Notes: generated by a model not told the origin, from the letters alone. Positions 1,796 to 63,356 are shown, counted from the stretch's first letter. The stretch is DNA of 64,000 nucleotides from an uncultured Clostridium sp. (GCA_905193755.1 CAJJPX010000001.1:53434-117433), one strand, 5' to 3'. Numbers and translations: made by a program.

Positions 1796-2008
1796 TAAAA
1801 AGGTAATACCAAAGGACGAATTTATCGTGGTACCACCTTATTTTATACTCTATATATTTAACGCATATCTACGTAACTATTTACTTTATTCAATAGTTAA
1901 CTCCCAAGCTACCTTCATATATCTATCTTAAGAAAAGCTTTCACCCGATGACTTTTCATCTCTAATAATTAGTATATATTACTCCTCTTGTTCCTCGTTT
2001 TATAAAGT
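1796..2008 (-). promoter_or_regulatory. T-box riboswitch leader for the HD-valS operon
   Basis: Read on the minus strand it has an AGAGA...GUGAAAG stem I GA-motif and a candidate specifier region containing GUA (Val) followed by A. The conserved T-box AAGGUGGUACCACG (plus 1826-1837) overlaps an 11-bp terminator stem AAGGUGGUACC/GGUAUUACCUU followed by UUUUUAUUUU. Confidence 0.8.
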
Positions 2009-5897: not shown

Positions 5898-6155
5898 TTA
5901 TATTTTACTAATTAATTCATCATAAATATTATCTTCTATTTTAACCTCTAAATGACGTTCAAGTGCTTTTGATTTACGAGCTTTTTCTATTACTTCTTTA
6001 TCTTTTTTAACATAAGCTCCGCGTCCATTAGCTTTACCTGTCTCGTCTACAAATACATTTCCTTCATTGTCTCTAACTACACGAAGTAAATCTCTTTTTT
6101 CTAATTTTTCATGTGTTATTACACAAATTCTCATAGGGACCTTTTTAACTTTCAT
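5898..6155 (-). CDS. ylxR: YlxR/RnpM family RNA-binding protein (DUF448)
   Basis: 85 aa, conserved position between nusA and infB, with the GRGAYV motif. Confidence 0.8.
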   Translation of the reverse strand: MKVKKVPMRICVITHEKLEKRDLLRVVRDNEGNVFVDETGKANGRGAYVKKDKEVIEKARKSKALERHLEVKIEDNIYDELISKI

Positions 6156-6174
6156 ACGTTTTCCCTCCTTATGA

Positions 6175-7317
6175 TTATTTATTTATTTCAGCATTTATAT
6201 CTGCTAAAGTCTTAATATTAATTGTATATTTAGTAAGTCTACTAGCTAATTTAATATTAATTCCTTTCTTACCAATTGCTAAACTTAAATTTTCATCATC
6301 AGCTATTACTAATGCTTCTTTTTTCTTTTCATCAGTAATACTTACGTTTAAGTTTTTAGCTGGACTTAATGCATTAGCAATAAATTCTTCCATATTATCA
6401 GAATAAGCTATTAAATCTACTTTTTCACCACCAAGTTCATTTATTATATTAGCAATTCTTCTTCCTTTTTCACCAATACAACTTCCAATTGGATCTACTT
6501 TTGGATTAGTTGAAGCAACAGCCACTTTACTTCTTACACCAGCTTCACGAGCAACTCCACGAAGTTCTAATGTTCCATCACTAAATTCAGGAATTTCATG
6601 TTCAAATAATCTTTTAACAAATCCATAGTTCTTTCTTGATGTCAAGATAAGTGGTCCCTTAGGTGTACTTTCTATTTTAGTAATATATACTTTTATAGAG
6701 TCTCCCATAGTTAATTTTTCACCTGGAATTAATTCAGTTTTAGGAAGTATACCACGTGCTTTACCTAAATCAACATAATAGTTTCTTGCATCTTCCATAG
6801 CAAGGAATCCTATCATTAACTCATCTTCTTTATCAGCGAAATCAGCCATAACTTTTTCACGTTCAGCTTCACGAATCTTTTGAAGAACTACTTGTTTAGC
6901 AACTGAAATAGCTACTCTACCAAAGTTTTTAGGAGTAACTTCTTCTAGTATTTCATCGCCTACTTGATAGTCACTATTTATTTCTTTAGCTTCGCTAATA
7001 GTCATTTCATTTAAGTAATCATGACTTACTTTAACTTCTCCAGTTTCTGGGTCTATATCATCATCATCATCTTTGTAATCATCTACTATAGTAGTAACTT
7101 TAAATACTTTAATTTCTCCAGTATTTCTATCTATTAATACACGACTATTATAATCAGCTTTTTCATTTTTCTTATATGCAGTACTTAAAGCAGTTTGCAT
7201 AGCTTCAATAACTACATCTTCATCTATTCCTTTTTCTTTTACTATAAACTCTAATGCTTTTTTAAATTCTTGAGCACTTGCTACTGCTGCATCTTCTTCT
7301 TTAACTTTCTTACTCAT
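6175..7317 (-). CDS. nusA: Transcription termination/antitermination factor NusA
   Basis: NusA N-domain, S1 and KH domains (FKKALEFIVKEKGI...). The likely start is MSKK at 7315-7317, after an AAGGAG RBS. The ORF-track extension to 7344 is probably not translated. Confidence 0.92.
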   Translation of the reverse strand: MSKKVKEEDAAVASAQEFKKALEFIVKEKGIDEDVVIEAMQTALSTAYKKNEKADYNSRVLIDRNTGEIKVFKVTTIVDDYKDDDDDIDPETGEVKVSHDYLNEMTISEAKEINSDYQVGDEILEEVTPKNFGRVAISVAKQVVLQKIREAEREKVMADFADKEDELMIGFLAMEDARNYYVDLGKARGILPKTELIPGEKLTMGDSIKVYITKIESTPKGPLILTSRKNYGFVKRLFEHEIPEFSDGTLELRGVAREAGVRSKVAVASTNPKVDPIGSCIGEKGRRIANIINELGGEKVDLIAYSDNMEEFIANALSPAKNLNVSITDEKKKEALVIADDENLSLAIGKKGINIKLASRLTKYTINIKTLADINAEINK

Positions 7318-9100: not shown

Positions 9101-10237
9101 TTATGAATAAGCAACAGCATATATAAATCCACAACTTTTTTTATTACCACTTTTTGGACTTGAACATCGTTTACTATAATCTTTATATTTACTATAAACT
9201 TGTTCTATAGTATAAGTTCCATTATTATTCTTATTAGCCGGGTCATGAACAACTACATTAGTTCCATTACCACCTAGTGCTATATAGTGCCCTGGTATTA
9301 AAAGTACAACTAGTTTTCCTTGATTCAACGCATTTGTTATAAGAGATGATTCTTTTTGATGAGTTGCAGAACTCTCATCATTATCATTCCTACCAAATAG
9401 TTTTTGAATCGTAACTCCATATTTTGAAGCAACTCTTTGATCAACAAGTGCAGCATCTGTTATAGCTCCACCACCAGTATTATTAGATATTTTTTGTCCA
9501 TAAACATAATCATGTACAGTTGATGGAGTTATATTACTATCTCTCTTTAAACCACTAAGTACCATCGCAAGTGATGTATAACCACAACCTGCATGACATA
9601 AGTCAGTTCCCATATATTTCTTTTCACTCCATCTAGAATCACATTGAGCATAATAAGGAAAATCAGTACTAGATGTACCACTAGTATCATAACTGCTTCC
9701 CCCACCAGTACCATCAGTACCAGCATACTTACTACTTTCTTCAGCAGCCTTTAATTCTTCTTGTATAATTTCATACATCGCATCAAGCCTATCCATATAT
9801 TCTTTTTTTACATCTTTATCTTTTATCTTTGAAGCAGCAGCAACAGCAGCATAATAATCAGTTAAACTCATATTCTCATCAGCCCTTGCTAATAAACTCT
9901 CAGTTTGTTTCAAATATGCATTATCAATATTTTCAGGAGTAGCACTATTCAAACAATCAATATAATTATTTTCTTCAGTACTTGAAACCTTTACTATAAC
10001 ATTAACAAGAGTTGGAACTAAAAACACACATATTGCTGCTATACACATATTTACTAAAGATTTCTTAGATTTCGTAAGTAAATCTTCATCTCCCACCTTT
10101 ATAGCTTTCATAAATGCTAACATTCCAGAAACTATAAGAATTATAGGAACAACAATTTTAATAATTAATATTATTGTATTAATAACACTAAATAATTCTA
10201 ATATTTCACCATTATCACAAATACCCAAAATATACAT
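9101..10237 (-). CDS. Membrane protein: pilin-like 2-TM N-module fused to a C39-like (papain-fold) cysteine peptidase domain
   Basis: The N-terminal ~90 aa (ICDNGEILELFSVINTIILIIKIVVPIILIVSGMLAFMKAIKVGDEDLLTKSKKSLVNMCIAAICVFLVPTLVNVIV) is paralogous to the N-termini of 60514-61614 and 62307-63356. The C-terminus has a Peptidase_C39_2-like pattern (YYAQCDSRWS...CHAGCGYTSLAMVLSG...VVLLIPGHYIALGG...VVHDP). RBS GGTGGTGA. Confidence 0.6.
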   Translation of the reverse strand: MYILGICDNGEILELFSVINTIILIIKIVVPIILIVSGMLAFMKAIKVGDEDLLTKSKKSLVNMCIAAICVFLVPTLVNVIVKVSSTEENNYIDCLNSATPENIDNAYLKQTESLLARADENMSLTDYYAAVAAASKIKDKDVKKEYMDRLDAMYEIIQEELKAAEESSKYAGTDGTGGGSSYDTSGTSSTDFPYYAQCDSRWSEKKYMGTDLCHAGCGYTSLAMVLSGLKRDSNITPSTVHDYVYGQKISNNTGGGAITDAALVDQRVASKYGVTIQKLFGRNDNDESSATHQKESSLITNALNQGKLVVLLIPGHYIALGGNGTNVVVHDPANKNNNGTYTIEQVYSKYKDYSKRCSSPKSGNKKSCGFIYAVAYS

Positions 10238-28455: not shown

Positions 28456-29928
28456 ATGAATGCATTAAAATTCAATGAAAAATTTGATGATATTATAGAA
28501 GAACCAACTAGTTACTGGAAAACCATAGATGATATACCACATAATATAAAAGATTTTATTAATACGAAATCAGACTCAATTCCACTATTTAACGAAAACA
28601 ATAATAAATACTATTGTCCACTATGCAAAGAAGAACTTACAAAACAAAATAAATGTCCAAACTGTTTAAAAATATACACAACAAAAGATAAATTAAAAAA
28701 TTTAAGTGATTATATCTACTATTATGTATTTGATATTAATAACAATAATGTTCTTCTCTATTTACTATGTGAAAATATAAACTATCTAAATCCACTATCA
28801 TTTTACCCTTTTAAACAAAGCAAACTAAGTATTAAAACTATTTATCAAATCTTACCAGAAAAAATTATAAATTTTACAAAGAACAAACATATTAGATATA
28901 AAGAACTAGAAAAAACAATTATAAAATTCAGAAATGCAACAGAAGAAATAAATGATAAAGATTTTGATTTATTAGATGAGTATATTTTTAACACATATGA
29001 ACATCAATATTTATATACAGATAACTTAATAGATTTAAAAAAAACTACTCTATATAGATATAGTAATTTATGGACTTTAAAAGATTATCTTAATAATCAT
29101 TATTTTTGTTTATCAAGTCTTGCATTTTACCCAGTATACTATAAAGAATTTGAATATTTATTAAAAATAAAATTATATGAATTAGCTATAAATAGTAGTT
29201 CTGAAATTAAATATAAAGGTAGTTTCAAAAGTACATTCGGAGTTGAAAAGAAATATTATGAATTTATGAAAAAAATTAATATAGATTATCTAGAGTTAGA
29301 AGCATTAAAACTTTATCCAACAACTGATATAAATATATTAAATTTTATAAAGAATAATTTAAGTTTAATAGAATTAATACTAAAGTATACAAATTTAGAC
29401 AAAGTACTAGATTATTTTAAAAATCAAAATTTAACACTAAATAACTTACATGAATATGGAGATTATATAAGATGCAGCGAAGAAATGAAATTAAATCTAA
29501 AAAATCACAAAATTTTATTTCCAAAATACTTTACTCAAAGTCATGATAAAATTACAAGTGAAATGATAGTATCAAAAGATCCACAAACAAATAAACATAT
29601 TAAAGATTTATCAAATATTCTTATATTAAATAAATATGAAGATGATAAATATATTATATTTCCAGCTGATAGTATAAATAGTCTTATAGATGAAAGTAAC
29701 AAACAATCAAATTGTGTAAGAACATATTGTAATATGGTAAGCAATAATGAATGTCAAATATATTTTATGAGACATAAAGATGATATTGATAAATCATTTG
29801 TTACTATTGAGGTTAGAGATAATAAAGTTGTTCAAGCAAAAACAAGATTTAATAACGATGTACCACCTGAAATTATGAATATAATTAGTAAATGGGAACA
29901 AACATTAATTCCAATAATTAATGAATAA
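28456..29928 (+). CDS. PcfJ-like domain protein with an N-terminal CxxC...CxxC zinc ribbon
   Basis: The C-terminal ~120 aa (LIDESNKQSNCVRTYCNMVSNNECQIYFMR...FVTIEVRDNKVVQAKTRFNNDVPPE) resembles the PcfJ-like family known from conjugative plasmids and phages. The N-terminus has CPLCKEEL...CPNC. Confidence 0.55.
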   Translation: MNALKFNEKFDDIIEEPTSYWKTIDDIPHNIKDFINTKSDSIPLFNENNNKYYCPLCKEELTKQNKCPNCLKIYTTKDKLKNLSDYIYYYVFDINNNNVLLYLLCENINYLNPLSFYPFKQSKLSIKTIYQILPEKIINFTKNKHIRYKELEKTIIKFRNATEEINDKDFDLLDEYIFNTYEHQYLYTDNLIDLKKTTLYRYSNLWTLKDYLNNHYFCLSSLAFYPVYYKEFEYLLKIKLYELAINSSSEIKYKGSFKSTFGVEKKYYEFMKKINIDYLELEALKLYPTTDINILNFIKNNLSLIELILKYTNLDKVLDYFKNQNLTLNNLHEYGDYIRCSEEMKLNLKNHKILFPKYFTQSHDKITSEMIVSKDPQTNKHIKDLSNILILNKYEDDKYIIFPADSINSLIDESNKQSNCVRTYCNMVSNNECQIYFMRHKDDIDKSFVTIEVRDNKVVQAKTRFNNDVPPEIMNIISKWEQTLIPIINE

Positions 29929-30994: not shown

Positions 30995-31081
30995 GCTAGT
31001 GTGGCGGAATTGGTAGACGCAGCAGACTCAAAATCTGCCGGTAGCAATACCTTGAGGGTTCGATTCCCTTCTCTAGCACCA
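30995..31081 (+). tRNA. tRNA-Leu (anticodon CAA)
   Basis: Cloverleaf read by hand: acceptor GCUAGUG/CUCUAGC with one U6-U67 mismatch, D-arm GCGG-AAUUGGUAGA-CGC, anticodon stem-loop with CU-CAA-AA, a long variable arm, T-arm GAGGG-UUCGAUU-CCCUU, and an encoded CCA. Confidence 0.85.
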
Positions 31082-40445: not shown

Positions 40446-40796
40446 CTAATCTCTTATTTTAAATATTAAAGTAACAATAAAAGCACAAACTATTGCTATA
40501 CTAATACCTCCAGAAGAATTAACTAGTATGCCCTTAAAGAGTCCCATAAAACCACCTTCTAAGTATCCATCACTTGCTCCAGTAACAAGTAAATGTCCAA
40601 AATTCATAATTGGTATACTTGCCCCACCTTTAAAAATATCTAATAATTTATCATAAATTCCAAATCCAGATAAAACACAACCAGTTATAACAAGTATTGT
40701 ATTCATGTGTCCTGGAGTAAATTTTGTTTTTTCTAAAATATATTGAGACATAGCACAAACAAAACCACAAAATAAGAATGCTAGTAAATATGTCAC
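40446..40796 (-). CDS. spoVAEb: Stage V sporulation protein AEb
   Basis: 116-aa membrane protein and the last gene of the spoVAC-AD-AEb unit. Confidence 0.8.
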   Translation of the reverse strand: MTYLLAFLFCGFVCAMSQYILEKTKFTPGHMNTILVITGCVLSGFGIYDKLLDIFKGGASIPIMNFGHLLVTGASDGYLEGGFMGLFKGILVNSSGGISIAIVCAFIVTLIFKIRD

Positions 40797-41764
40797 TCTA
40801 ACACCTCCAAACTTACAGCATGACTAACTCCTGGCATAGCTACTTTTTGATTTGAACTTATAACCGAATGTAAAGAACCTGTACCAACAACTAATATTTT
40901 TTTATATTTATTTAAAGGTAAAATGTAATCAAAAAGTGTTAAAGGTAAACATAAAGGTCCACTTCCACCAGCATATATATTATCTTCAGTATATATTATA
41001 CTTCCAGAGTCTATAACATTATCTAAGTTTACTTTATATTTCTTCTTATAATACATCTGCATAATCTTAGTTCCATAAATACCTAAGTCGCCAGTAAGTA
41101 TTAAATCATAATATTTATAATTTCTTCCAGTGCTTTCTAAATGAGCATGTATAACTTCTGCACAAGAAGGTGCCATAGCACTACCCATATCATTAGCATC
41201 TTTATGATTAGTTTGAGTAACATATCCAAAAGTACCACTTTCTACTCTTAAATTACTTTTTTCATTACTTAAAAGTACACTTATGCTTCCACTTAATGTA
41301 CAAGTATTAACCATCTTACGAAGTGCACCATATTCAATAGGAAATCTAAACTGTTTTTCACTTACTAAGTTATGACCAGAAACTGTAACAATAGTACTTT
41401 TATTTTTATTATCTATTATGTTAGCACCTATAATTATTCCTTCTACAAACGTAGCACAAGCACTATAAATAGTACAACTAGGAATCTTAAATTTACATGA
41501 TGCAAGACTACTCGCAAGACATTGATTTTGTAAGTCACCACTAATAAGTAAATCAACTTCTTTAGTAAGTTTCTTACTCTTCATAAGTAACCCCTTAATA
41601 GTAGTTTCTTGATACTTACATTCAGCAAGCTCTATACTTTTTTCATTAACATAATAGTCATCAACCACTTTATCAGGATTATTCATAACTATAGGTTTAT
41701 ATTTAGTAGATGCAAGAAGTGAAAATTTATCATTGATATATACATTATTAAAATAGTATGTCAT
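40793..41764 (-). CDS. spoVAD: Stage V sporulation protein AD (thiolase-like fold)
   Basis: 323 aa with the characteristic SpoVAD sequence (GLLMKSKKL...ISGDLQNQ...CATFVEGIIIGANII). Confidence 0.88.
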   Translation of the reverse strand: MTYYFNNVYINDKFSLLASTKYKPIVMNNPDKVVDDYYVNEKSIELAECKYQETTIKGLLMKSKKLTKEVDLLISGDLQNQCLASSLASCKFKIPSCTIYSACATFVEGIIIGANIIDNKNKSTIVTVSGHNLVSEKQFRFPIEYGALRKMVNTCTLSGSISVLLSNEKSNLRVESGTFGYVTQTNHKDANDMGSAMAPSCAEVIHAHLESTGRNYKYYDLILTGDLGIYGTKIMQMYYKKKYKVNLDNVIDSGSIIYTEDNIYAGGSGPLCLPLTLFDYILPLNKYKKILVVGTGSLHSVISSNQKVAMPGVSHAVSLEVLE

Positions 41765-42222
41765 AGTATCACACTCCTTACAAATCCAAATATTATTCCA
41801 AAAAGTACTCCATATAATATAATACTTCCCGTAAGCTTGAATATCGAAGCACCTATTCCCTTTATAAATCCTTCACTCTTAGCATCCATTGCACTACTTG
41901 TCATTGTATTCGCAAACCCTGTAGCTGGCACAATAAGTCCACATTTGAATACACTAAGTACTTTATCAAAAATACCAAATCCAGTAAGTACTGAACCTAT
42001 CACTATAAATGTTGAAAAAGTATAAAAGCTCGCATCACTTAAAGTAATATTAAATACTTTAAAATAAAATTCACACATAACTTCAGCAATTATACCAACC
42101 ACTCCACCACTAAAAAAAGCAATCATTACATTTTTTAATATACTTTCTTTTCCTATAACACTACTAACTAACTTGTCATATTCTTTATTATTCATTTTGT
42201 CACCTACACTTATTTTTACCAT
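41761..42222 (-). CDS. spoVAC: Stage V sporulation protein AC
   Basis: 153-aa polytopic membrane protein with a typical SpoVAC sequence. Confidence 0.85.
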   Translation of the reverse strand: MVKISVGDKMNNKEYDKLVSSVIGKESILKNVMIAFFSGGVVGIIAEVMCEFYFKVFNITLSDASFYTFSTFIVIGSVLTGFGIFDKVLSVFKCGLIVPATGFANTMTSSAMDAKSEGFIKGIGASIFKLTGSIILYGVLFGIIFGFVRSVIL

Positions 42223-42496: not shown

Positions 42497-43831
42497 ATGT
42501 GGAGATTTATTGTTATTCTTGCATGCAAACTTACAAACAAACTTAGTAAAATAACTGGACATGAAGGAAGTGTTATTGGAGGAAAAGTAGCTCGTAAACT
42601 TGATAAAAATATACTTAAGAAAATCAAGCTTCCTAAATATGTAATTGGTATAACAGGTTCAAGTGGTAAAAGTAGTTCAACTGAACTTACTTATAATATA
42701 CTAACTAAAAACGGATATACTGTTGTTTACAACAAAGAAGGGAGTAACACTATTAATGGTATAACTTCTCTAATACTAAATAACTCATCGTTATCTGGAA
42801 AACTTAAAAAAGATGTTTTATTAATGGAACTTGATGAACAATTCATGAAATATATATTTGAGTATATAACACCTACTCATTTAATGATTACAAATATTAC
42901 AAGAGACCAACCACCAAGAAACTCTCACCCAGAAAAAATATATAATGCTATTAAAAATGCAATACCTGCTGGAACTCATTTAATACTTAATGTAGACGAT
43001 CCATTCGTAAATAGAATTAGAATCAATCACAAAGGTGAAGTTACTACATATGGTATGACAGAAAATAACTATTCAAGAAAAAGCAATCTTAATAATTTAG
43101 ATGCAGCTTACTGCCCTATTTGTAATTCTAAACTTGAATATGATTTTTATCACTATGGACACATTGGATCATACCACTGTCCTAAATATCATTTCAATCG
43201 TGGTAAACCAAATTATGAAGCAAAAGAAATAGACGTAGATAATGAACAAATTAAAATAAATGATAATATTATTCACCTACCATCAAACTTCTTATATACA
43301 GTATACTTTGTAACTGGTTGTTATGCCTTAGCTCATGAAATAGGAATTAAAGAAGAAGATATATTAAAAGTATTAAATGATGAAAATATTAAGACTAAAA
43401 GAATGGAAATATATGACTTTGATAATAGAAAATGGCAAATGTTAGTAAGTAAAAACGAAAATAACTTAAGCTACAAACAATCACTAGATTATATATTACA
43501 TCAAGAAGGAGACAAAACAATAATACTTGGTTTTGACTCCTCAAGTAGAAGATATAAAGAAAATGATATATCATGGATATGGGATATAGACTTTGAGTCT
43601 CTAAACGACTCAAGTATCAAAAATATAATATTGATTGGTAAATTCTGTTATGATATGAAAGTTCGTATGGAGTACGCTGGTATACAAAAAGATAAAATAA
43701 TTTTAGTAGAAAACTTAGATAATTTAAGTAAAACAATTAAAACTAAAACAACTGGTAAAATATTCTCAATGGTATGTTTTGATAAAGAAATTGAACTTAA
43801 AAAGATTATAAAGGAGGAAAATAATGATTAA
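42497..43831 (+). CDS. murT: Lipid II isoglutaminyl synthase, Mur-ligase-like subunit MurT
   Basis: Mur ligase P-loop GITGSSGKSS, and the MurT-specific Cys cluster CPICNSKLEYDFYHYGHIGSYHCPKYHF. The partner gatD is downstream. Confidence 0.88.
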   Translation: MWRFIVILACKLTNKLSKITGHEGSVIGGKVARKLDKNILKKIKLPKYVIGITGSSGKSSSTELTYNILTKNGYTVVYNKEGSNTINGITSLILNNSSLSGKLKKDVLLMELDEQFMKYIFEYITPTHLMITNITRDQPPRNSHPEKIYNAIKNAIPAGTHLILNVDDPFVNRIRINHKGEVTTYGMTENNYSRKSNLNNLDAAYCPICNSKLEYDFYHYGHIGSYHCPKYHFNRGKPNYEAKEIDVDNEQIKINDNIIHLPSNFLYTVYFVTGCYALAHEIGIKEEDILKVLNDENIKTKRMEIYDFDNRKWQMLVSKNENNLSYKQSLDYILHQEGDKTIILGFDSSSRRYKENDISWIWDIDFESLNDSSIKNIILIGKFCYDMKVRMEYAGIQKDKIILVENLDNLSKTIKTKTTGKIFSMVCFDKEIELKKIIKEENND

Positions 43832-44549
43832 TGTATTACACTTATATTATGACCTTCTAAATCTATATGGAGAAAATGCTAATACAAGATGTATAAAAGA
43901 AGAACTAACAAGAAGCAATATAAAAGTAAAAGTAGATTTAAAAAGTATAAATGATAAAATAGACTTTGAAAAATATGATATTATTTATATTGGAAGTGGC
44001 TCTGAAGAATCATTAGAACTAGCTCTATCTGATATATTAAAAAGAAAAAATGATTTTAAAAAATATATAGAAGCAAATAAATACTTAATATTAACTGGAA
44101 ACTCAATGTGTATGTTTGGTTCTTATATAGAAACAAAAGATAAAAAATTAGATGCTTTAGATATATTTAAATACTACACTAAATACATAGATGAAGTAAC
44201 ATTTAAAAATGCATCAGCTGATAGAATTGTCGGGGAAATTAAAGGAAAAACAAAATTAATTAAAGAAACAATAATTGGATTTCAAAATAGATGCGATTAT
44301 ATTTACAATATTAAAACTTCTTTACTAGAAGTAGATACTAAATATTCAAATGATGGAACAAATAATAATGAAGGATTCACTTATAAAAATGTATATGCAA
44401 CTCATACAATAGGTCCCCTACTTATTAGAAATCCATACTTAACAGATTACTTATTAAAAAATATTTGTAAATCTAAAAATTTAAAATATAAAATAGAAGA
44501 AACCACTTCTAAAGAAGCATATAAAAAGTACTTAGAAAACTTTAACTAA
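43824..44549 (+). CDS. gatD: Lipid II isoglutaminyl synthase glutaminase subunit GatD (CobB/CobQ-like GATase)
   Basis: It overlaps the murT stop, is 241 aa, and has the typical GatD N-terminus INVLHLYYDLLNLYGENAN. Confidence 0.8.
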   Translation: MINVLHLYYDLLNLYGENANTRCIKEELTRSNIKVKVDLKSINDKIDFEKYDIIYIGSGSEESLELALSDILKRKNDFKKYIEANKYLILTGNSMCMFGSYIETKDKKLDALDIFKYYTKYIDEVTFKNASADRIVGEIKGKTKLIKETIIGFQNRCDYIYNIKTSLLEVDTKYSNDGTNNNEGFTYKNVYATHTIGPLLIRNPYLTDYLLKNICKSKNLKYKIEETTSKEAYKKYLENFN

Positions 44550-46917: not shown

Positions 46918-47916
46918 ATGAGAAATAAAGTAGAGAAAAATAAAAAAATTATTGGATTAGATATTATAAGAGTAATAGCGGTTATATCAGTACTTTGTGT
47001 ACACTTTTTCCTAAATACTAAATATTATCAAACAAGTGTAAATGGTATAGGAATGAAATTACAATATATAGTAAGAAACATATTTATGATATGTGTCCCA
47101 TTATTTATAATATTGACTGGTTACTTAAATAAGAAAAAAGAATACAATAAAGAATTTTTTAAAGGATTAATTGAAGTACTAATAATATGGTTATTTTATA
47201 GTATTATAGAATTCTTTGTATCAAATATAAATAATGTTATAACTATAAAAGATTTTATATTTCAAATAACCGACTTTAAAGCAAGTTACTACTCTTGGTA
47301 CATTGAAATGTATATAGGATTATATCTATTAAGTCCTATCATAAATAATGGATATGACAATTTAAAAGAAAAAGATAAAAAGACTGCATTAATTTTATTC
47401 TTAATTATATTTATATTGCCTGGAATTGTAAATGAGTTATTAATAGATGTAGTACACATACCAGATTGGTGGTATAACGTATACCCATTAGGCTATTATT
47501 TAACTGGCAAATACATAAAAGATAAAAAACCAAACTACAATAAGATAAAACTAATAATAATATTTATTTTAATACAAGCATTATCATTTATACTTATTGG
47601 AAAAACACGTATAGAATTTGAAAGTTTAAATGTATATATTAGTTCTATAACAATATTCTTATTAGCCTATAATATAGATATTAAAAATAAAATATTGACT
47701 AAAATAATACAAATAATTTCTGTTTTAAGTTTAGATATATATTTAGCATCAGGACTAACCGATCAAATAGTTTATAAAATATTTAATAATAAATTAGCTC
47801 TTTATAATATTCCACAATCAAGATGTGTATTATATGCTCCGATTGTTGTAACAACTTCATTTATATTAGCAACACTTTATGCTTATATAAGGAAGAAACT
47901 AATTAAAGTAAGATAA
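46918..47916 (+). CDS. Acyltransferase family 3 (OafA/YrhL-like) membrane protein
   Basis: IIGLDIIRVIAVISVLCVHF N-terminus with ~10 TM helices. Confidence 0.7.
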   Translation: MRNKVEKNKKIIGLDIIRVIAVISVLCVHFFLNTKYYQTSVNGIGMKLQYIVRNIFMICVPLFIILTGYLNKKKEYNKEFFKGLIEVLIIWLFYSIIEFFVSNINNVITIKDFIFQITDFKASYYSWYIEMYIGLYLLSPIINNGYDNLKEKDKKTALILFLIIFILPGIVNELLIDVVHIPDWWYNVYPLGYYLTGKYIKDKKPNYNKIKLIIIFILIQALSFILIGKTRIEFESLNVYISSITIFLLAYNIDIKNKILTKIIQIISVLSLDIYLASGLTDQIVYKIFNNKLALYNIPQSRCVLYAPIVVTTSFILATLYAYIRKKLIKVR

Positions 47917-59992: not shown

Positions 59993-60505
59993 TTACTCAC
60001 TTTCTTCTATAAAATTTTTACTTTTATGTGGTTCATCAAATAACAAACCTGGATACCCTTGTTGTCTTAATGCTTCATATGTCATTATAGCTACTGTATT
60101 GGATAAATTAAGTGCTCTAACATTATCAGTCATAGGCATTCTCATACATCTATCTATATATGGTTTTAATATATGAGGTGGTATACCAGTACTTTCTTTT
60201 CCAAAAAAGAAATAATAATTTTTATCTCTATCGCTATAATCAAAACTAGTATGTGGTTTATGTCCATATCTAGTTAAGAAATAATATTCACCTTTATTCT
60301 TTTCAAAGAATTCATCCATATTTTCATATACTGTATATATACACTTATCTATATAATTAACACCAGCTCTTTTAATATATTTTTCTTCAAGACTAAATCC
60401 TAAAGGTTTTATTAAATGTAAATGACTATTAGTAGCCACACATGTTCTCATAATATTACCAGTATTTTCAGGTATCTCTGGTTCAAATAAAACTATATTT
60501 ATCAT
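59993..60505 (-). CDS. trmL: tRNA (cytidine/uridine-2'-O-)-methyltransferase TrmL (SpoU family)
   Basis: MINIVLFEPEIPENTGNIMRTC... The start is at the second ATG after an AGGGGGA RBS, so the ORF-track extension MHRIGGF is rejected. Confidence 0.85.
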   Translation of the reverse strand: MINIVLFEPEIPENTGNIMRTCVATNSHLHLIKPLGFSLEEKYIKRAGVNYIDKCIYTVYENMDEFFEKNKGEYYFLTRYGHKPHTSFDYSDRDKNYYFFFGKESTGIPPHILKPYIDRCMRMPMTDNVRALNLSNTVAIMTYEALRQQGYPGLLFDEPHKSKNFIEESE

Positions 60506-60513
60506 AAATCCCC

Positions 60514-61614
60514 CTATCCTATGCAATCTTTTATTTTAGAATATATAAATTCATACCCTTTTTTATTATAATGAATTGAATCTGTACTTATATATGAACT
60601 ACTCCATTTATCTAATGTTGCTTTAGAATAAACATCACAATACTTAGTATTTTCAAGTCCAGATATACAAGAACTAATTTGTTTATTAAATGTTTCTATA
60701 TTAGCATTTTTAGCATAAAGGCTTCCACTATCACGAACTGGATTAACACTAACTACATAAACTTTATTTTTAGAGTTAACACTATTTATAAATGATTTAT
60801 ACTTTTCACAATATTTGCTTAAATTTCCCATGTCATTAACTCCATAATTTAAAACTATATTATAACTTTTACCATCACTTAAATAACCATTAACTGTACT
60901 TATGTGACTTACAAAATCATTATATCCCCCACCATCTTTAGCAACAACTTTATCACTAGATGGTAGTCCTGAATTATTTTTTAAACCATTAGTTCTAGAA
61001 TCTCCCATAAATATGGTACCAGCTACAGTACCAACATTAGTACTACTATCATTTGTATTGTTCGTATTATTACTATTGTTATCACCACTAGTATTTTCAC
61101 TACCATTAGTACTAGAATTATTATCAGAAGAATTTCCTTTACTTTCTATTTCCTTAATTAAAGAATCTAATCTACTTTGATACCCTTTCTTTTTTTCTGT
61201 ATCTTTAACTGCATTAACAGCATTCACTGCATTTGAATAATCCTCAATTTTCTTAGAAGTTTCAGCCTTAGACAACAATTCTTCAGCTCTCTTTTCATAA
61301 GAATCATCAATGGTAGAACTAGAAGTACTCAAACAATCTCTATATTCATTATTAGGATCAGAAATTGTAACAAGAACATTAACAAGAGTAGGAATCATAA
61401 ACACACATATTGCAGCTATACATTTAGTTATAAAAGACTTCTTTGCTTTTGAAAGTAAATCTTCATCACCAACTTTAATAGATTGCATAAAAGTAATCAT
61501 ACCAGTAAGAATAAGAATAATTGGCACAACTATTTTAATAATTAGTATTACTATATTTATAACTCTCATAAGTTCTAACACTTCAGGTACAGAACAAATA
61601 GATTGAATTAACAC
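60514..61614 (-). CDS. Membrane protein: pilin-like 2-TM N-module + N/S-rich linker + SGNH/GDSL hydrolase domain
   Basis: The N-terminus (VINIVILIIKIVVPIILILTGMITFMQSIKVGDEDLLSKAKKSFITKCIAAICVFMIPTLVNVLV) is paralogous to 9101-10237 and 62307-63356. The C-terminus has SGNH blocks (IFMGDSRT ... NYGVND ... DSIHYN). Confidence 0.6.
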   Translation of the reverse strand: MLIQSICSVPEVLELMRVINIVILIIKIVVPIILILTGMITFMQSIKVGDEDLLSKAKKSFITKCIAAICVFMIPTLVNVLVTISDPNNEYRDCLSTSSSTIDDSYEKRAEELLSKAETSKKIEDYSNAVNAVNAVKDTEKKKGYQSRLDSLIKEIESKGNSSDNNSSTNGSENTSGDNNSNNTNNTNDSSTNVGTVAGTIFMGDSRTNGLKNNSGLPSSDKVVAKDGGGYNDFVSHISTVNGYLSDGKSYNIVLNYGVNDMGNLSKYCEKYKSFINSVNSKNKVYVVSVNPVRDSGSLYAKNANIETFNKQISSCISGLENTKYCDVYSKATLDKWSSSYISTDSIHYNKKGYEFIYSKIKDCIG

Positions 61615-61625
61615 TATATCATCCC

Positions 61626-62297
61626 CTATCTCTTTTTAAAATGCATATATGCATACACACCACAACCAGCAACAACAACTAAAACTGAAATTATAGTTAT
61701 TAAAGTATAATTAAAATTATCTTCATTTATAGTATTTTTTCTTAATTCATTTTTAGACATTTGAAAAACTATATTAACATTATTTCTATTATTATCATCA
61801 ATCTTCCATATATAAGTACCATTTTCTACACTATCAGCATTATTACTTATTACTTTATATTTAGTATTAATTTTAATATTAGTTTTATCATAATAGCAAC
61901 TAAAACTACCATATGCTTTTATATAATAATAATCTTTCTCGTTAAGAACAACATAATTTTCAAAACAATTATTTATTAAGTATGACTTACTAAAATTAAT
62001 ATAATCATAATCATAAGAATATTCTAAATCTAAACCATTATTTATTTTATTAGATATTTTTTTATGAACGGTACTATAATCATTAATAAAAACAAGTATA
62101 TGTTGTTCTTCAAAAACTTCATATAAGTCCTCGGTTAGTTTTTCTTCTTGATTGTCATTATAATTGTTATAATCTCGTTCAGTTACATTAAATTTTATAT
62201 TTTCTTTAATATTTTTTTCATCAATATCTAAATTATAATTAATTTCACAACCAGAACATAAAATAAGTATTAAGACTAATAAAATATATTTTTTCAT
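61626..62297 (-). CDS. Lipoprotein with a C-terminal TM anchor, encoded between the two hydrolase-fusion genes
   Basis: Lipobox LILCSGC, 223 aa, C-terminal hydrophobic helix LITIISVLVVVAGCGVYAY followed by HFKKR. It is tightly spaced (9-11 nt) from both neighbours. Confidence 0.55.
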   Translation of the reverse strand: MKKYILLVLILILCSGCEINYNLDIDEKNIKENIKFNVTERDYNNYNDNQEEKLTEDLYEVFEEQHILVFINDYSTVHKKISNKINNGLDLEYSYDYDYINFSKSYLINNCFENYVVLNEKDYYYIKAYGSFSCYYDKTNIKINTKYKVISNNADSVENGTYIWKIDDNNRNNVNIVFQMSKNELRKNTINEDNFNYTLITIISVLVVVAGCGVYAYMHFKKR

Positions 62298-62306
62298 ACT
62301 CTTCTC

Positions 62307-63356
62307 CTAACAACTAACATTACAAGAACCAAAGTGTCCACCTTCTACTTTATCAGGTTCTATATGCCATGCTTCATATGACAATCTAAATTTTAAATTA
62401 TATTTAGATGCATTACTGTGTGCCCAAGTTGCAGCACTGTTGCAGTTCCATCCTCCTTTACAGGATGTTCCATCAAATGATAAATCAGCAGCAATACCAA
62501 AGTTATGTCTTGAACCACCAGGACAAGCAACCCATTTATTTCTTTCACTACATGCTCTAGTGGAATTTATCCAAAGATTATATTGATGACTGTAAGCTCT
62601 ATATCCAGATGTTATTGTAATTTTATACCCATTAGCTTGAGCATCATTTAAAAAAGCTTGTAATCTTCTACTGAATTCGGGATGTGTACCAGATATACCA
62701 CTCAATCTAGGAGCTTCTGCATCACTCTTAACTCTAGTGTTTGGTAAATAAAATACACCATCTCTATATTCAACTTTATAAACACCAGTAGCTGCTATAT
62801 TATCAGCACCATATCCACCATAACTAGATCCAGCACTCTGTAATGCCTCTGCTTTAGCAGCCTCATCCATTCTAGTTTGTATAACTTTATATACGGCATC
62901 TAATCTTGCAGTGTATTTCTCTCTTTCATCATTACTTAATTTATGAACTTCACTATATGCTTGATAGTACGCAGTATAATTATTATCAGCTTCAGCCTTA
63001 TCAATTAACTCACTTATTCTTTTATCATAAACACTAGCTATAGCTTCATCATTACCTAATCTCAAACATTCTCTATATTCATTATTAGAATCAGAAATAG
63101 TTACAAGAACATTAACAAGAGTCGGTACCATAAATACACATATCGCAGCTATACTCTTATTTAAAAAAGACTTCTTAGCTTTAGAAAGTAAATCTTCATC
63201 ACCAACTTTAATTGCCTTTAAAAAATCTAACATACCAACTACAATCAACATAATTGGTACAACTATTTTAATAATTGTAATAACAATATTAACTATTCTA
63301 AGTAATGATAATACATCTCCATTATCACATATAGAAACAATACTCATAATAATCAC
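62307..63356 (-). CDS. Membrane protein: pilin-like 2-TM N-module fused to a peptidase M15 (VanY / DD- or LD-carboxypeptidase-like) domain
   Basis: Same N-module as above (ICDNGDVLSLLRIVNIVITIIKIVVPIMLIVVGMLDFLKAIKVGDEDLLSKAKKSF...). The C-terminus has ITITSGYRAYSHQYNLW ... GGSRHNFGIAADL ... EAWHIEP, which are M15 zinc-ligand blocks (H / D / H). Confidence 0.65.
   Translation of the reverse strand: MIIMSIVSICDNGDVLSLLRIVNIVITIIKIVVPIMLIVVGMLDFLKAIKVGDEDLLSKAKKSFLNKSIAAICVFMVPTLVNVLVTISDSNNEYRECLRLGNDEAIASVYDKRISELIDKAEADNNYTAYYQAYSEVHKLSNDEREKYTARLDAVYKVIQTRMDEAAKAEALQSAGSSYGGYGADNIAATGVYKVEYRDGVFYLPNTRVKSDAEAPRLSGISGTHPEFSRRLQAFLNDAQANGYKITITSGYRAYSHQYNLWINSTRACSERNKWVACPGGSRHNFGIAADLSFDGTSCKGGWNCNSAATWAHSNASKYNLKFRLSYEAWHIEPDKVEGGHFGSCNVSC

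Follow-up and report, generated by a model that had tools for sequence, protein, structure and literature searches.

A pilin-like transmembrane hairpin joined to diverse hydrolase domains in an uncultured Clostridium and other uncultured gut bacteria

Why would a bacterial chromosome keep, among its housekeeping genes, several genes whose products begin with the same pilin-like pair of membrane helices and end in different enzymes? The question is raised by a stretch of DNA of 64,000 nucleotides (nt) from an uncultured Clostridium sp. (GCA_905193755.1, CAJJPX010000001.1:53434-117433), the whole of which we call the window. A first-pass annotation had described there two such fusion genes flanking a lipoprotein gene, with a third paralogue at 9.1 kb, and a check of the open reading frames (ORFs) upheld both this arrangement, entirely on the minus strand, and its coordinates (Table 1). 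The three proteins carry, behind a shared N-terminal module (N-module), a VanY-type zinc peptidase, an SGNH esterase and a C39_2-type cysteine peptidase, and they are named below by these catalytic heads.

One N-terminal module and three catalytic heads

The three proteins resemble one another over the N-module far more than chance would allow: when its profile was run against the 370 six-frame ORFs of the window, exactly these three were recovered (E = 1e-76 to 1e-78), and the next ORF scored E = 0.12. Their first ~94 amino acids (aa) are 65-73% identical and a further ~70 aa are 30-32% identical, so that the conserved ~90-aa segment of ~60-70% identity reported earlier is real and the module itself is longer, at ~160 aa. 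Beyond it the three sequences are unrelated (10-27% identity). In the VanY protein the module starts with a hairpin made of a short N-terminal tail with Cys7, a first transmembrane helix (TM1) with Pro31, the charged turn KAIKVGDEDLLSKAKKS and a second transmembrane helix (TM2) with Pro75, followed by Cys94. Residues C7, P31, P75 and C94 are invariant in alignments of 150 and 111 family representatives, and Y127, A130 and L149, in the helical stalk behind the hairpin, are nearly so.

The proposed architecture of two transmembrane (TM) segments around a charged loop is borne out by the sequence and by an AlphaFold2 (AF2) model. Hydrophobic segments at residues ~15-42 and ~65-84 flank the turn, with a net positive charge, and the model places helices at 10-48 and 51-85, each with a predicted local distance difference test score (pLDDT) above 90, around a turn at G49-D50. 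Four more helices follow (90-96, 100-121, 124-134 and 139-174), and residues 10-170 keep a pLDDT above 90; the catalytic head is poorly predicted because the alignment mixed different heads. Since the flanks of the turn are net positive, the positive-inside rule predicts that the turn should lie in the cytoplasm, with both ends of the hairpin and the enzyme outside.

The heads are of the types first assigned to them, for the SGNH head probably so, and the catalytic motifs of all three are intact. The VanY head scores far above the Pfam cut-off (E = 5e-18, 65.7 bits against 25), has SGYR, SRHNFGIAAD and EAWH motifs that contain the M15B zinc ligands (H-x6-D and a distal H), and matches Bacillus subtilis YodJ in the PDB (4ox3, E = 3.8e-8). 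The C39 head also exceeds its cut-off (Peptidase_C39_2, E = 7e-10, 40 bits against 24, residues 192-334) and has GCGYTS and PGHY motifs with the catalytic Cys and His; it found no PDB relative by sequence. The SGNH head falls just below (Lipase_GDSL_2, E = 7e-7, 30.3 bits against 32.9, residues 202-355), with GDS, GVND and DSIH blocks (GxND, DxxH) in its sequence and a weak PDB match to 1yzf (E = 0.021). The SGNH and C39_2 heads are no more than plausible wall enzymes. An Acyl_transf_3 membrane acyltransferase, of the type that O-acetylates wall polymers, is encoded 13 kb away (46918-47916, plus strand, E = 5e-29) and could supply a substrate for the SGNH esterase.

The genes of the cluster are tightly packed, with gaps of 9 nt between the VanY and lipoprotein genes and 11 nt between the lipoprotein and SGNH genes, in agreement with the 9-11 nt first described. 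The VanY ORF had been given as 62307-63356; the ORF is real, and position 63356 is that of an upstream GTG. Its likely start is the ATG at 63347, because this codon sits 8 nt past a GGAG and gives a 346-aa product, the length of every orthologue found in the database, among them a protein (P0004) that is 99% identical. The SGNH gene starts with a GTG, 6 nt after a GGGGA. On its 3' side the trmL-like gene follows after ~8 nt, if it uses the same ATG as its 170-aa orthologues, so the unit probably extends into housekeeping genes, with trmL probably on the same transcript; a promoter and terminator scan, which is uninformative in DNA of 26% G+C, found no terminator-like site between the two. A near-identical Logan contig (SRR24884128, our locus L001) is otherwise 99% identical and has the SGNH gene split into ORFs of 210 and 105 aa (5953-7052), which may reflect a frameshift or an assembly error.

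Table 1. Features of the fusion genes and their immediate context in the window (positions from its first letter)
Feature	Position	Strand	Basis or product
Gene for N-module + VanY/LdcB-type (M15B) zinc peptidase	62307..63347	-	346 aa
VanY protein, TM hairpin (residues 1-95)	63063..63347	-	invariant columns, AF2, T4SS_pilin match, hhalign
VanY protein, helical stalk (residues ~96-175), then low-complexity linker	62823..63062	-	AF2 helices
Lipoprotein gene, with C-terminal TM helix; partner of the VanY gene	61626..62297	-	223 aa; lipobox, TM
Gene for N-module + Ser/Asn-rich linker + SGNH/GDSL esterase	60514..61614	-	366 aa, GTG start
Gene for N-module + Peptidase_C39_2-type cysteine peptidase (third paralogue)	9101..10237	-	378 aa
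trmL-like SpoU methylase gene (context only)	59993..60505	-	SpoU_methylase, E = 4e-28

A large family and its kinship with conjugation pilins

A word-indexed protein search with the N-module returned 3 matches; an exhaustive profile search returned 7,961 cluster representatives at E <= 1e-3, of which 2,096 scored at or below 1e-10 and 153 at or below 1e-30. In all of the best 150 representatives the module occupies residues ~1-160, in proteins of 126-877 aa, and behind it stand M23, CHAP, NlpC/P60, M15, GDSL, alpha/beta-esterase and NAGPA heads. A Pfam scan of 111 full-length members assigned 11 to Esterase or alpha-beta hydrolase families, 10 each to Peptidase_M23 and BD-FAE, 9 to GDSL_2, 8 each to CHAP, C39_2 and S9, 6 to M15_4, 3 each to VanY, NAGPA and NlpC/P60, and single proteins to Glucosaminidase, Metallophos and EEP. 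The idea of a conserved module with swapped heads, formed on three proteins, therefore extends to thousands. The accompanying claim that no such family has been described also seems right: a name is attached to none of the 10 clusters looked up, Pfam and NCBIfam models all stay below their cut-offs on the module, a hairpin and stalk of this kind on a multi-paralogue set of hydrolases is undescribed in the literature searched, and a literature search for fusions of VirB2 with hydrolases returned nothing.

The family was met at 35 loci in a genome scan, which used a narrower alignment (A2) and is thus biased towards close relatives. Nearly all belong to metagenome-assembled genomes (MAGs) from gut or rumen labelled uncultured Bacilli, 'Tenericutes', Mollicutes or Erysipelotrichaceae. 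Single genomes hold many paralogues, with at least 7 loci in CAMKMS01 and at least 9 in CAMIXH01, where CHAP, esterase, NAGPA and NlpC/P60 are among the heads and five heads went unmatched in Pfam. A tblastn search of plasmids with the N-module gave no match, and a blastn search of phages with the locus gave solely a 99-nt match on the trmL side. Some relatives are arranged differently. Tandem arrays occur in rumen Erysipelotrichaceae MAGs, with four family genes in L019 (999-6931) and two in L025 (3314-7772), and each array has, a few genes downstream and past an ~850-aa gene that is valS-like in L019, a type IV pilin-like gene whose product starts with an FTLVELL-type motif. In L028 (9167-11329) and L029 (9155-11275) the hairpin lies inside proteins of 706-720 aa, preceded by a signal peptide and an N-terminal domain, the latter assigned by Pfam to NlpC/P60 in L029, and followed by a second domain.

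Where does the hairpin come from? The resemblance to pilins of type IV secretion systems (T4SSs) noted in the first-pass annotation holds as a similarity of sequence that is remote but consistent, and we regard the hairpin as a homologue of T4SS-associated pilin-like proteins. The window proteins reach 14.8-20.9 bits against Pfam T4SS_pilin (PF18895; E = 4e-4 to 0.03), under the cut-off of 26.6 bits, and the match of the VanY protein (E = 4e-4) spans positions 8-71 of the 71-position profile. When N-modules were scanned alone, 23 of 34 matched T4SS_pilin at E <= 0.1 (best 1.3e-4), and the next family was matched by 5 of 34; among full-length members the best match has E = 5e-6. The top NCBIfam families of the same 34 modules are all conjugation proteins, pilin-like or transmembrane: MMCAP2_0566 (9 of 34), the 'pilin-like conjugal transfer protein' Mbov_0395 (6 of 34, best 9.3e-5), Mbov_0396 (6 of 34) and pLS20_p028 (3 of 34, best 4.8e-8). 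The last of these models could not be matched with any pLS20 gene described so far; what the literature numbers as gene 28 is ConAn1, a different protein. Alignments by hhalign of the N-module and of the stand-alone family described below showed no similarity to PrgF of pCF10, and a search of PDB sequences with the N-module profile gave nothing significant (6u0o_B, an LYZ2 domain-containing protein, at E = 0.45).

The kinship is strengthened by a stand-alone form of the hairpin, in proteins of 105-157 aa, which hhalign aligns with module residues 6-99 at 99.5% (E = 2e-23) and which is linked to T4SS genes. In L035 a 116-aa stand-alone hairpin gene is followed by an N-module-VanY gene, a homologue of the lipoprotein, a signal-peptide protein that ends in a hairpin, a 636-aa polytopic protein, a 101-aa protein with two TM segments (weak TcpE match) and a split VirB4-type ATPase (AAA_10, E = 1e-11; P-loop_TraG, E = 8e-14). 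The N-module-VanY protein of this locus is 39% identical over its full length to that of the window (E = 1e-75). In L046 the stand-alone hairpin gene precedes VirB6-, VirB3- and VirB4-like genes. Such a position beside VirB6-like genes fits the description of Gram-positive VirB2-like proteins, which are small, have two TM segments and a charged loop, are encoded near virB6 and were only very recently recognised (10.64898/2025.12.18.695078).

Side by side with these T4SS loci stand others in which the same gene has different company. In L044, L045 and L046 (4438-9922 in the last) the stand-alone hairpin gene always follows a Tad-like block of an RcpC-like protein, a T2SSE ATPase, two polytopic proteins, an 89-aa protein and a ~330-aa protein; in L044 (10001-10372) and L045 (8677-9048) it has no VirB4 nearby, and the block is followed there by LtaS and LytR genes with no T4SS. 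Because the gene always follows that block, and the T4SS is absent from L044 and L045, the stand-alone hairpin may belong to a Tad-like unit as much as to a T4SS. The signal-peptide proteins of L035 (3534-4889) and L046 (10689-12017) have an outside domain of ~370 aa and carry the hairpin at their end.

Hairpin and stalk also differ in how they diverge. The hairpins of the window paralogues are 63-73% identical, against 49-74% for orthologous hairpins elsewhere; for the stalks the figures are 34-40% between window paralogues and 43-69% between orthologues. In a nearest-neighbour test of 45 modules several hairpins were closest to a paralogue in the same genome while the stalk was closest to an orthologue elsewhere, and L020 and L030 share a hairpin that is 95% identical and a stalk that is 66% identical; the same greater likeness of hairpin than stalk involves L019, L023 and L033. 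The DNA of the window paralogues is 56-65% identical at third codon positions, with a longest identical run of 29 nt, and bears no mark of very recent gene conversion. The pattern suggests concerted evolution of the TM hairpin, judging from these comparisons, and points to gene conversion or co-adaptation to a shared partner.

The lipoprotein and the chromosomal setting

The product of the gene between the VanY and SGNH genes had been taken for a lipoprotein with a C-terminal TM anchor, and it has both a lipobox (ending LCSGC) and a TM helix at residues 192-222. It has no sequence-level match to any Pfam family. Its own family comprised 11 matches, with an invariant G16-C17 lipobox, two conserved cysteines and the C-terminal TM helix. 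The protein has an LppM-like beta fold at 6% sequence identity to LppM. LppM has the same layout of lipobox and C-terminal TM helix and binds phosphatidylinositol mannoside glycolipids (PMC5217060).

The company kept by its homologues bears on its role. In related genomes they occupy the same chromosomal site, in the order pyruvate kinase, VanY, lipoprotein, SGNH (in some) and trmL. Homologues also occur in the three T4SS loci: in L035 one follows the N-module-VanY gene; in L037 the order is the end of VirB4, a CHAP protein, the lipoprotein, an M23 protein, two small proteins and the coupling protein; and in L046 it is VirB4, an M23+CHAP protein and the lipoprotein (E = 2.9e-22). Because one family accompanies VanY, CHAP and M23 enzymes, the lipoprotein is better seen as a general partner than as an immunity protein specific to one head. 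The immunity role once suggested for it finds no support on these grounds, all the more as most genes of the hydrolase family have no such neighbour. The genes downstream of family genes in L004-L006, which also encode a lipobox and a C-terminal TM helix, showed no homology to it beyond the signal peptide (hhalign, L005), and the gene between the two family genes of L025 is unrelated to it (hhalign).

The window is chromosomal, with 26% G+C, and most of the genes identified among ~50 Pfam-scanned ORFs are housekeeping genes (RNase J, IscS-like, ThiI, SerS, RelA/SpoT, ScpA/B, acetate kinase, tRNAs, a T-box). It also encodes MurT (MurT_C, E = 3e-23) and GatD, which act in lipid II amidation, and SpoVAD (E = 3e-79), at 42497-44549 on the plus strand and 40793-42222 on the minus strand, with an adjacent unscanned 153-aa gene where SpoVAC would be expected. 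With MurT/GatD and SpoVAD in the window, the host makes peptidoglycan and has genes for spores, even though related MAGs are labelled 'Tenericutes', and a wall-less host that attacks other bacteria was rejected for the same reason.

In keeping with the statement that the window has no other conjugation genes, VirB4, VirD4 and a relaxase were not found in the Pfam scans of the ~50 ORFs. The sole conjugation-related match is a PcfJ-like protein (28456-29928, plus strand, E = 5e-23), of a family known from conjugative plasmids; since it stands alone and near a tRNA gene (30995-31078), it may be the remnant of an integrated element. No T4SS gene was found within 10 kb at 33 of the 35 genome loci, nor in the window, and T4SS genes occur among the loci in L035, L037 and L046 only.

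The fusion genes instead hold fixed places in the core chromosome. The VanY-lipoprotein-SGNH cluster sits between an ASCH-domain gene and trmL, and the C39 gene between an AAA ATPase gene and TasA-like, rimP and nusA genes. Orthologues of the C39 gene lie directly beside rimP/nusA in L003, L007 and L012 (54-68% identity over the full length), orthologues of the SGNH gene next to trmL in L008 (66%), L041 (63%) and L009 (44%), and in L038 and L041 the identity of the VanY protein is 62-77%; a 170-aa trmL orthologue directly follows a family gene in L001, L008, L038 and L041. Syntenic orthologues, 44-77% identical over their full length, thus keep their head unchanged. Neighbours of family genes further include infB and RNase J, other family genes adjoin pgk, tuf/fusA, uvrC, ruvAB, lysS and valS, and in L020 and L026 a family gene has a MurJ-like flippase gene next to it. 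The trmL site itself varies in content, with the SGNH gene only in L008 and L009 and the VanY and lipoprotein genes only in L038-L040, so that the VanY-lipoprotein pair behaves like a cassette that joined or left a site where a family gene was already present.

Two further observations concern the neighbours. Directly downstream of the C39 gene (7678-9048, minus strand) lies a gene for a 456-aa protein with a camelysin/TasA-like N-terminal region (Peptidase_M73, E = 1.5e-13; the BsaA/TasA SipW-dependent models also match) and DUF285/PARCEL repeats of the kind usual in surface proteins of Mollicutes; in L002, L003, L007, L012 and L027 a shorter TasA-like gene (~180 aa) stands shortly before a second family gene. 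Near the start of the window a T-box leader (1809-2004, minus strand, 103.8 bits) precedes a 253-aa ORF (1032-1793); in related loci similar ORFs of ~250 aa precede a valS-like gene, and right before this point those loci have a second family gene that is missing from the window genome.

Possible functions and likeness to known systems

What, then, do these proteins do? We hypothesise, with about an even chance of being right, that they are exported hydrolases tethered to the membrane and acting on the cell's own wall, with an anchor and stalk derived from the pilin-like hairpin of T4SSs; membrane-tethered wall remodelling, offered in the first-pass annotation as the alternative, is what fits best. 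TM1 and TM2 would form a long helical hairpin, its charged turn facing the cytoplasm, that serves as a stable membrane anchor. With KAKKS ahead of it, TM2 would act as an uncleaved signal-anchor, and the stalk, linker and enzyme would therefore be exported. The invariant Cys7 and Cys94, both predicted just outside the membrane, may staple the two ends of the hairpin by a disulfide, and the three-helix stalk and flexible linker would position the catalytic head against the wall's inner face. There the VanY/LdcB-type peptidase would trim peptidoglycan stem peptides as a carboxypeptidase, the SGNH esterase would probably remove O-acetyl or similar ester groups from wall polymers, and the paralogue at 9.1 kb would add a papain-clan (C39_2) peptidase. 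The LppM-fold lipoprotein, anchored at both ends, would be a general partner that serves as a scaffold, a regulator or a binder of lipid-linked wall material. The hairpin would descend from the VirB2-type hairpin of monoderm T4SS loci, as homology and linkage suggest, and one of these loci, L035, contains a direct counterpart of the VanY-lipoprotein pair; in the lineage of the window the genes are fixed in the chromosome and would be expressed with their housekeeping neighbours and directed at the cell's own wall.

Several points weigh against this hypothesis. A single-TM anchor would suffice for tethering, and a hairpin with invariant Pro and Cys residues is left unexplained by it; nor does it account for hairpins that are more alike within a genome than their stalks, a hint of a shared partner or of co-assembly. 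Some heads of the family, namely Metallophos, EEP, S9 and alpha/beta esterases, do not readily suggest work on the wall, C39_2 domains are not established wall hydrolases, and the SGNH head lies under its Pfam cut-off, its substrate being a guess. The family has no cultured representative, and the search of the host for a T4SS was confined to the window.

It is mainly the likeness of same-genome hairpins that keeps alive a variant of the hypothesis which we consider quite unlikely, namely that the paralogues co-assemble through co-evolving, Cys-stapled, pilin-derived hairpins, with one another or on a VirB6-like platform, into a wall-spanning or membrane-organised scaffold that presents a whole set of hydrolases; put differently, and with the same low likelihood, they would be 'minor pilins' by which enzymes are mounted on the conjugative pilus of a Gram-positive cell. 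Close to it is the possibility that the proteins are accessory subunits of a T4SS or pilus, the hairpin docking on a VirB6-type platform or co-polymerising with a stand-alone pilin encoded elsewhere in the genome and so bringing a hydrolase to where the channel or pilus crosses the wall of donor or recipient, in effect a fusion of VirB2 with VirB1. The homology of the hairpin to pilin-like conjugation proteins speaks for it, as do the apparent co-adaptation of same-genome hairpins, the place of the N-module-VanY and lipoprotein genes in L035 between a stand-alone hairpin gene and VirB6/VirB3/VirB4-like genes, the lipoprotein homologues that directly follow hydrolases after VirB4 in L037 and L046, and the design of two TM segments and a charged loop that Gram-positive VirB2-like proteins share near virB6 (10.64898/2025.12.18.695078). 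Yet neither the window nor most of the loci have a T4SS gene at hand, at least 9 paralogues can be scattered through one genome at housekeeping sites of conserved synteny, and many of the heads, esterases and NAGPA for instance, do not punch holes. The lack of similarity to PrgF and the stand-alone hairpins beside Tad-like genes without VirB4 in L044 and L045 count in the same direction, and to our knowledge no polymerising VirB2 carries a C-terminal load of 250 aa. We therefore hold a role in conjugation to be unlikely.

The same fixed chromosomal places decide against the polymorphic effector or toxin system to which the first-pass annotation had likened the locus, in which the N-module would deliver exchangeable lytic heads to competitors and the lipoprotein would confer immunity. 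One conserved module with many lytic or hydrolytic heads, small membrane or lipoprotein genes after a subset of family genes, and tandem arrays such as the four genes of L019 are what such a system would look like; however, at a given locus the head is constant across genomes, whether C39 (54-68% identity), SGNH (44-66%) or VanY (62-77%), and the genes stand among housekeeping genes. The proteins are integral to the membrane with no linked export or contact apparatus found in the window, the 111 members include no deaminases or ADP-ribosyltransferases and one EEP, the one lipoprotein family is shared by VanY, CHAP and M23 enzymes, the seeming lipoproteins of L004-L006 and the gene of L025 are not its homologues beyond the signal peptide, and most loci have no lipoprotein-like neighbour, so that this explanation is highly unlikely. 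A role in sporulation or germination (engulfment, or cortex maturation or lysis), with the enzymes tethered to the mother-cell or forespore membrane, we also judge improbable. The host has spoVAD and the 153-aa gene at the position of spoVAC, membrane-tethered hydrolases are typical of engulfment, and LD- and DD-carboxypeptidases and esterases act in cortex maturation in Bacillus; but the genes have constitutive translation and RNA genes for neighbours and no sporulation gene next to them, profile scans showed no homology to SpoIID, SpoIIP, CwlD, SleB or CwlJ-type families, and sporulation is not known to need as many as 9 or more paralogues with such varied heads.

How far do known systems resemble this one? 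VirB2-type hairpin proteins (T4SS_pilin, the pilin-like Mbov_0395 and MMCAP2_0566 of Mollicutes integrative and conjugative elements, and Gram-positive VirB2-like proteins such as PrgF) have, as predicted for the window proteins too, two long TM helices, a short charged cytoplasmic turn and their ends outside. They are small stand-alone proteins of ~50-150 aa, whereas the window hairpin forms the N-terminus of enzymes of 346-378 aa with a conserved three-helix stalk behind it; they are encoded near virB6 and virB4, whereas the window genes are chromosomal with no such gene in the window, and only the homologues in L035 and L046 share that neighbourhood. The window proteins also score below the cut-offs of the pilin families. 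The VirB1-like hydrolases of Gram-positive T4SSs (PrgK of pCF10, TraG of pIP501, CwlT of ICEBs1, TcpG of pCW3) are membrane-anchored with modular heads (M23, CHAP, NlpC/P60, lysozyme), and the VanY protein of the window likewise joins a peptidoglycan-hydrolase domain to a membrane anchor and has relatives inside T4SS loci; they differ in having a single N-terminal TM segment or signal peptide and a place in the transfer operon, against a pilin-like hairpin, housekeeping sites and VanY, SGNH and C39_2 heads in the window.

Closest in function to our preferred explanation, that of tethered hydrolases acting on the cell's own wall, are systems of controlled autolysins, which provide the functional analogy behind it. 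In Staphylococcus aureus SagB-SpdC, B. subtilis CwlO-FtsEX and Streptococcus pneumoniae PcsB-FtsEX a helical segment keeps a wall hydrolase at the membrane, and the enzyme works with a membrane partner. The window proteins have no sequence relationship to them, 6u0o_B at E = 0.45 being the sole and insignificant match, and their partner is an LppM-fold lipoprotein and not FtsEX or SpdC. That lipoprotein and Mycobacterium tuberculosis LppM (Rv2171) both combine a lipobox with a C-terminal TM helix; they come from different phyla, and the gene in the window is paired with wall hydrolases and has homologues in T4SS loci. Polymorphic toxins, those of contact-dependent inhibition (CDI), Rhs and LXG/type VII secretion (T7SS), likewise place many C-terminal enzymes, sometimes with a small downstream gene, on a conserved N-terminal module, and the present family differs from them in lacking locus-level swapping of heads, a linked secretion system in the window and a head-specific immunity partner, and in bearing wall and ester hydrolases as heads.

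Membrane-anchored autolysins and T4SS wall hydrolases were thus already known, and what is new is a pilin-type hairpin and stalk on a core-genome set of hydrolases. A hairpin of the pilin kind is fused to nearly the whole repertoire of wall hydrolases in thousands of proteins of uncultured gut Bacilli, spread through the core genome. For Firmicutes, the LppM-fold lipoprotein emerges alongside it as a new candidate for a component associated with T4SSs. Should the hairpins still assemble in a pilin-like manner, the biogenesis of T4SS pili would be linked directly to the breaching of the wall, and if the paralogues co-assemble, a T4SS pilus module would have been domesticated for cell-wall work. 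If the hairpin is an anchor only, it would represent a new, lineage-wide way to tether, and probably to control, autolysins, and would give names to many 'hypothetical' proteins of the gut microbiome.

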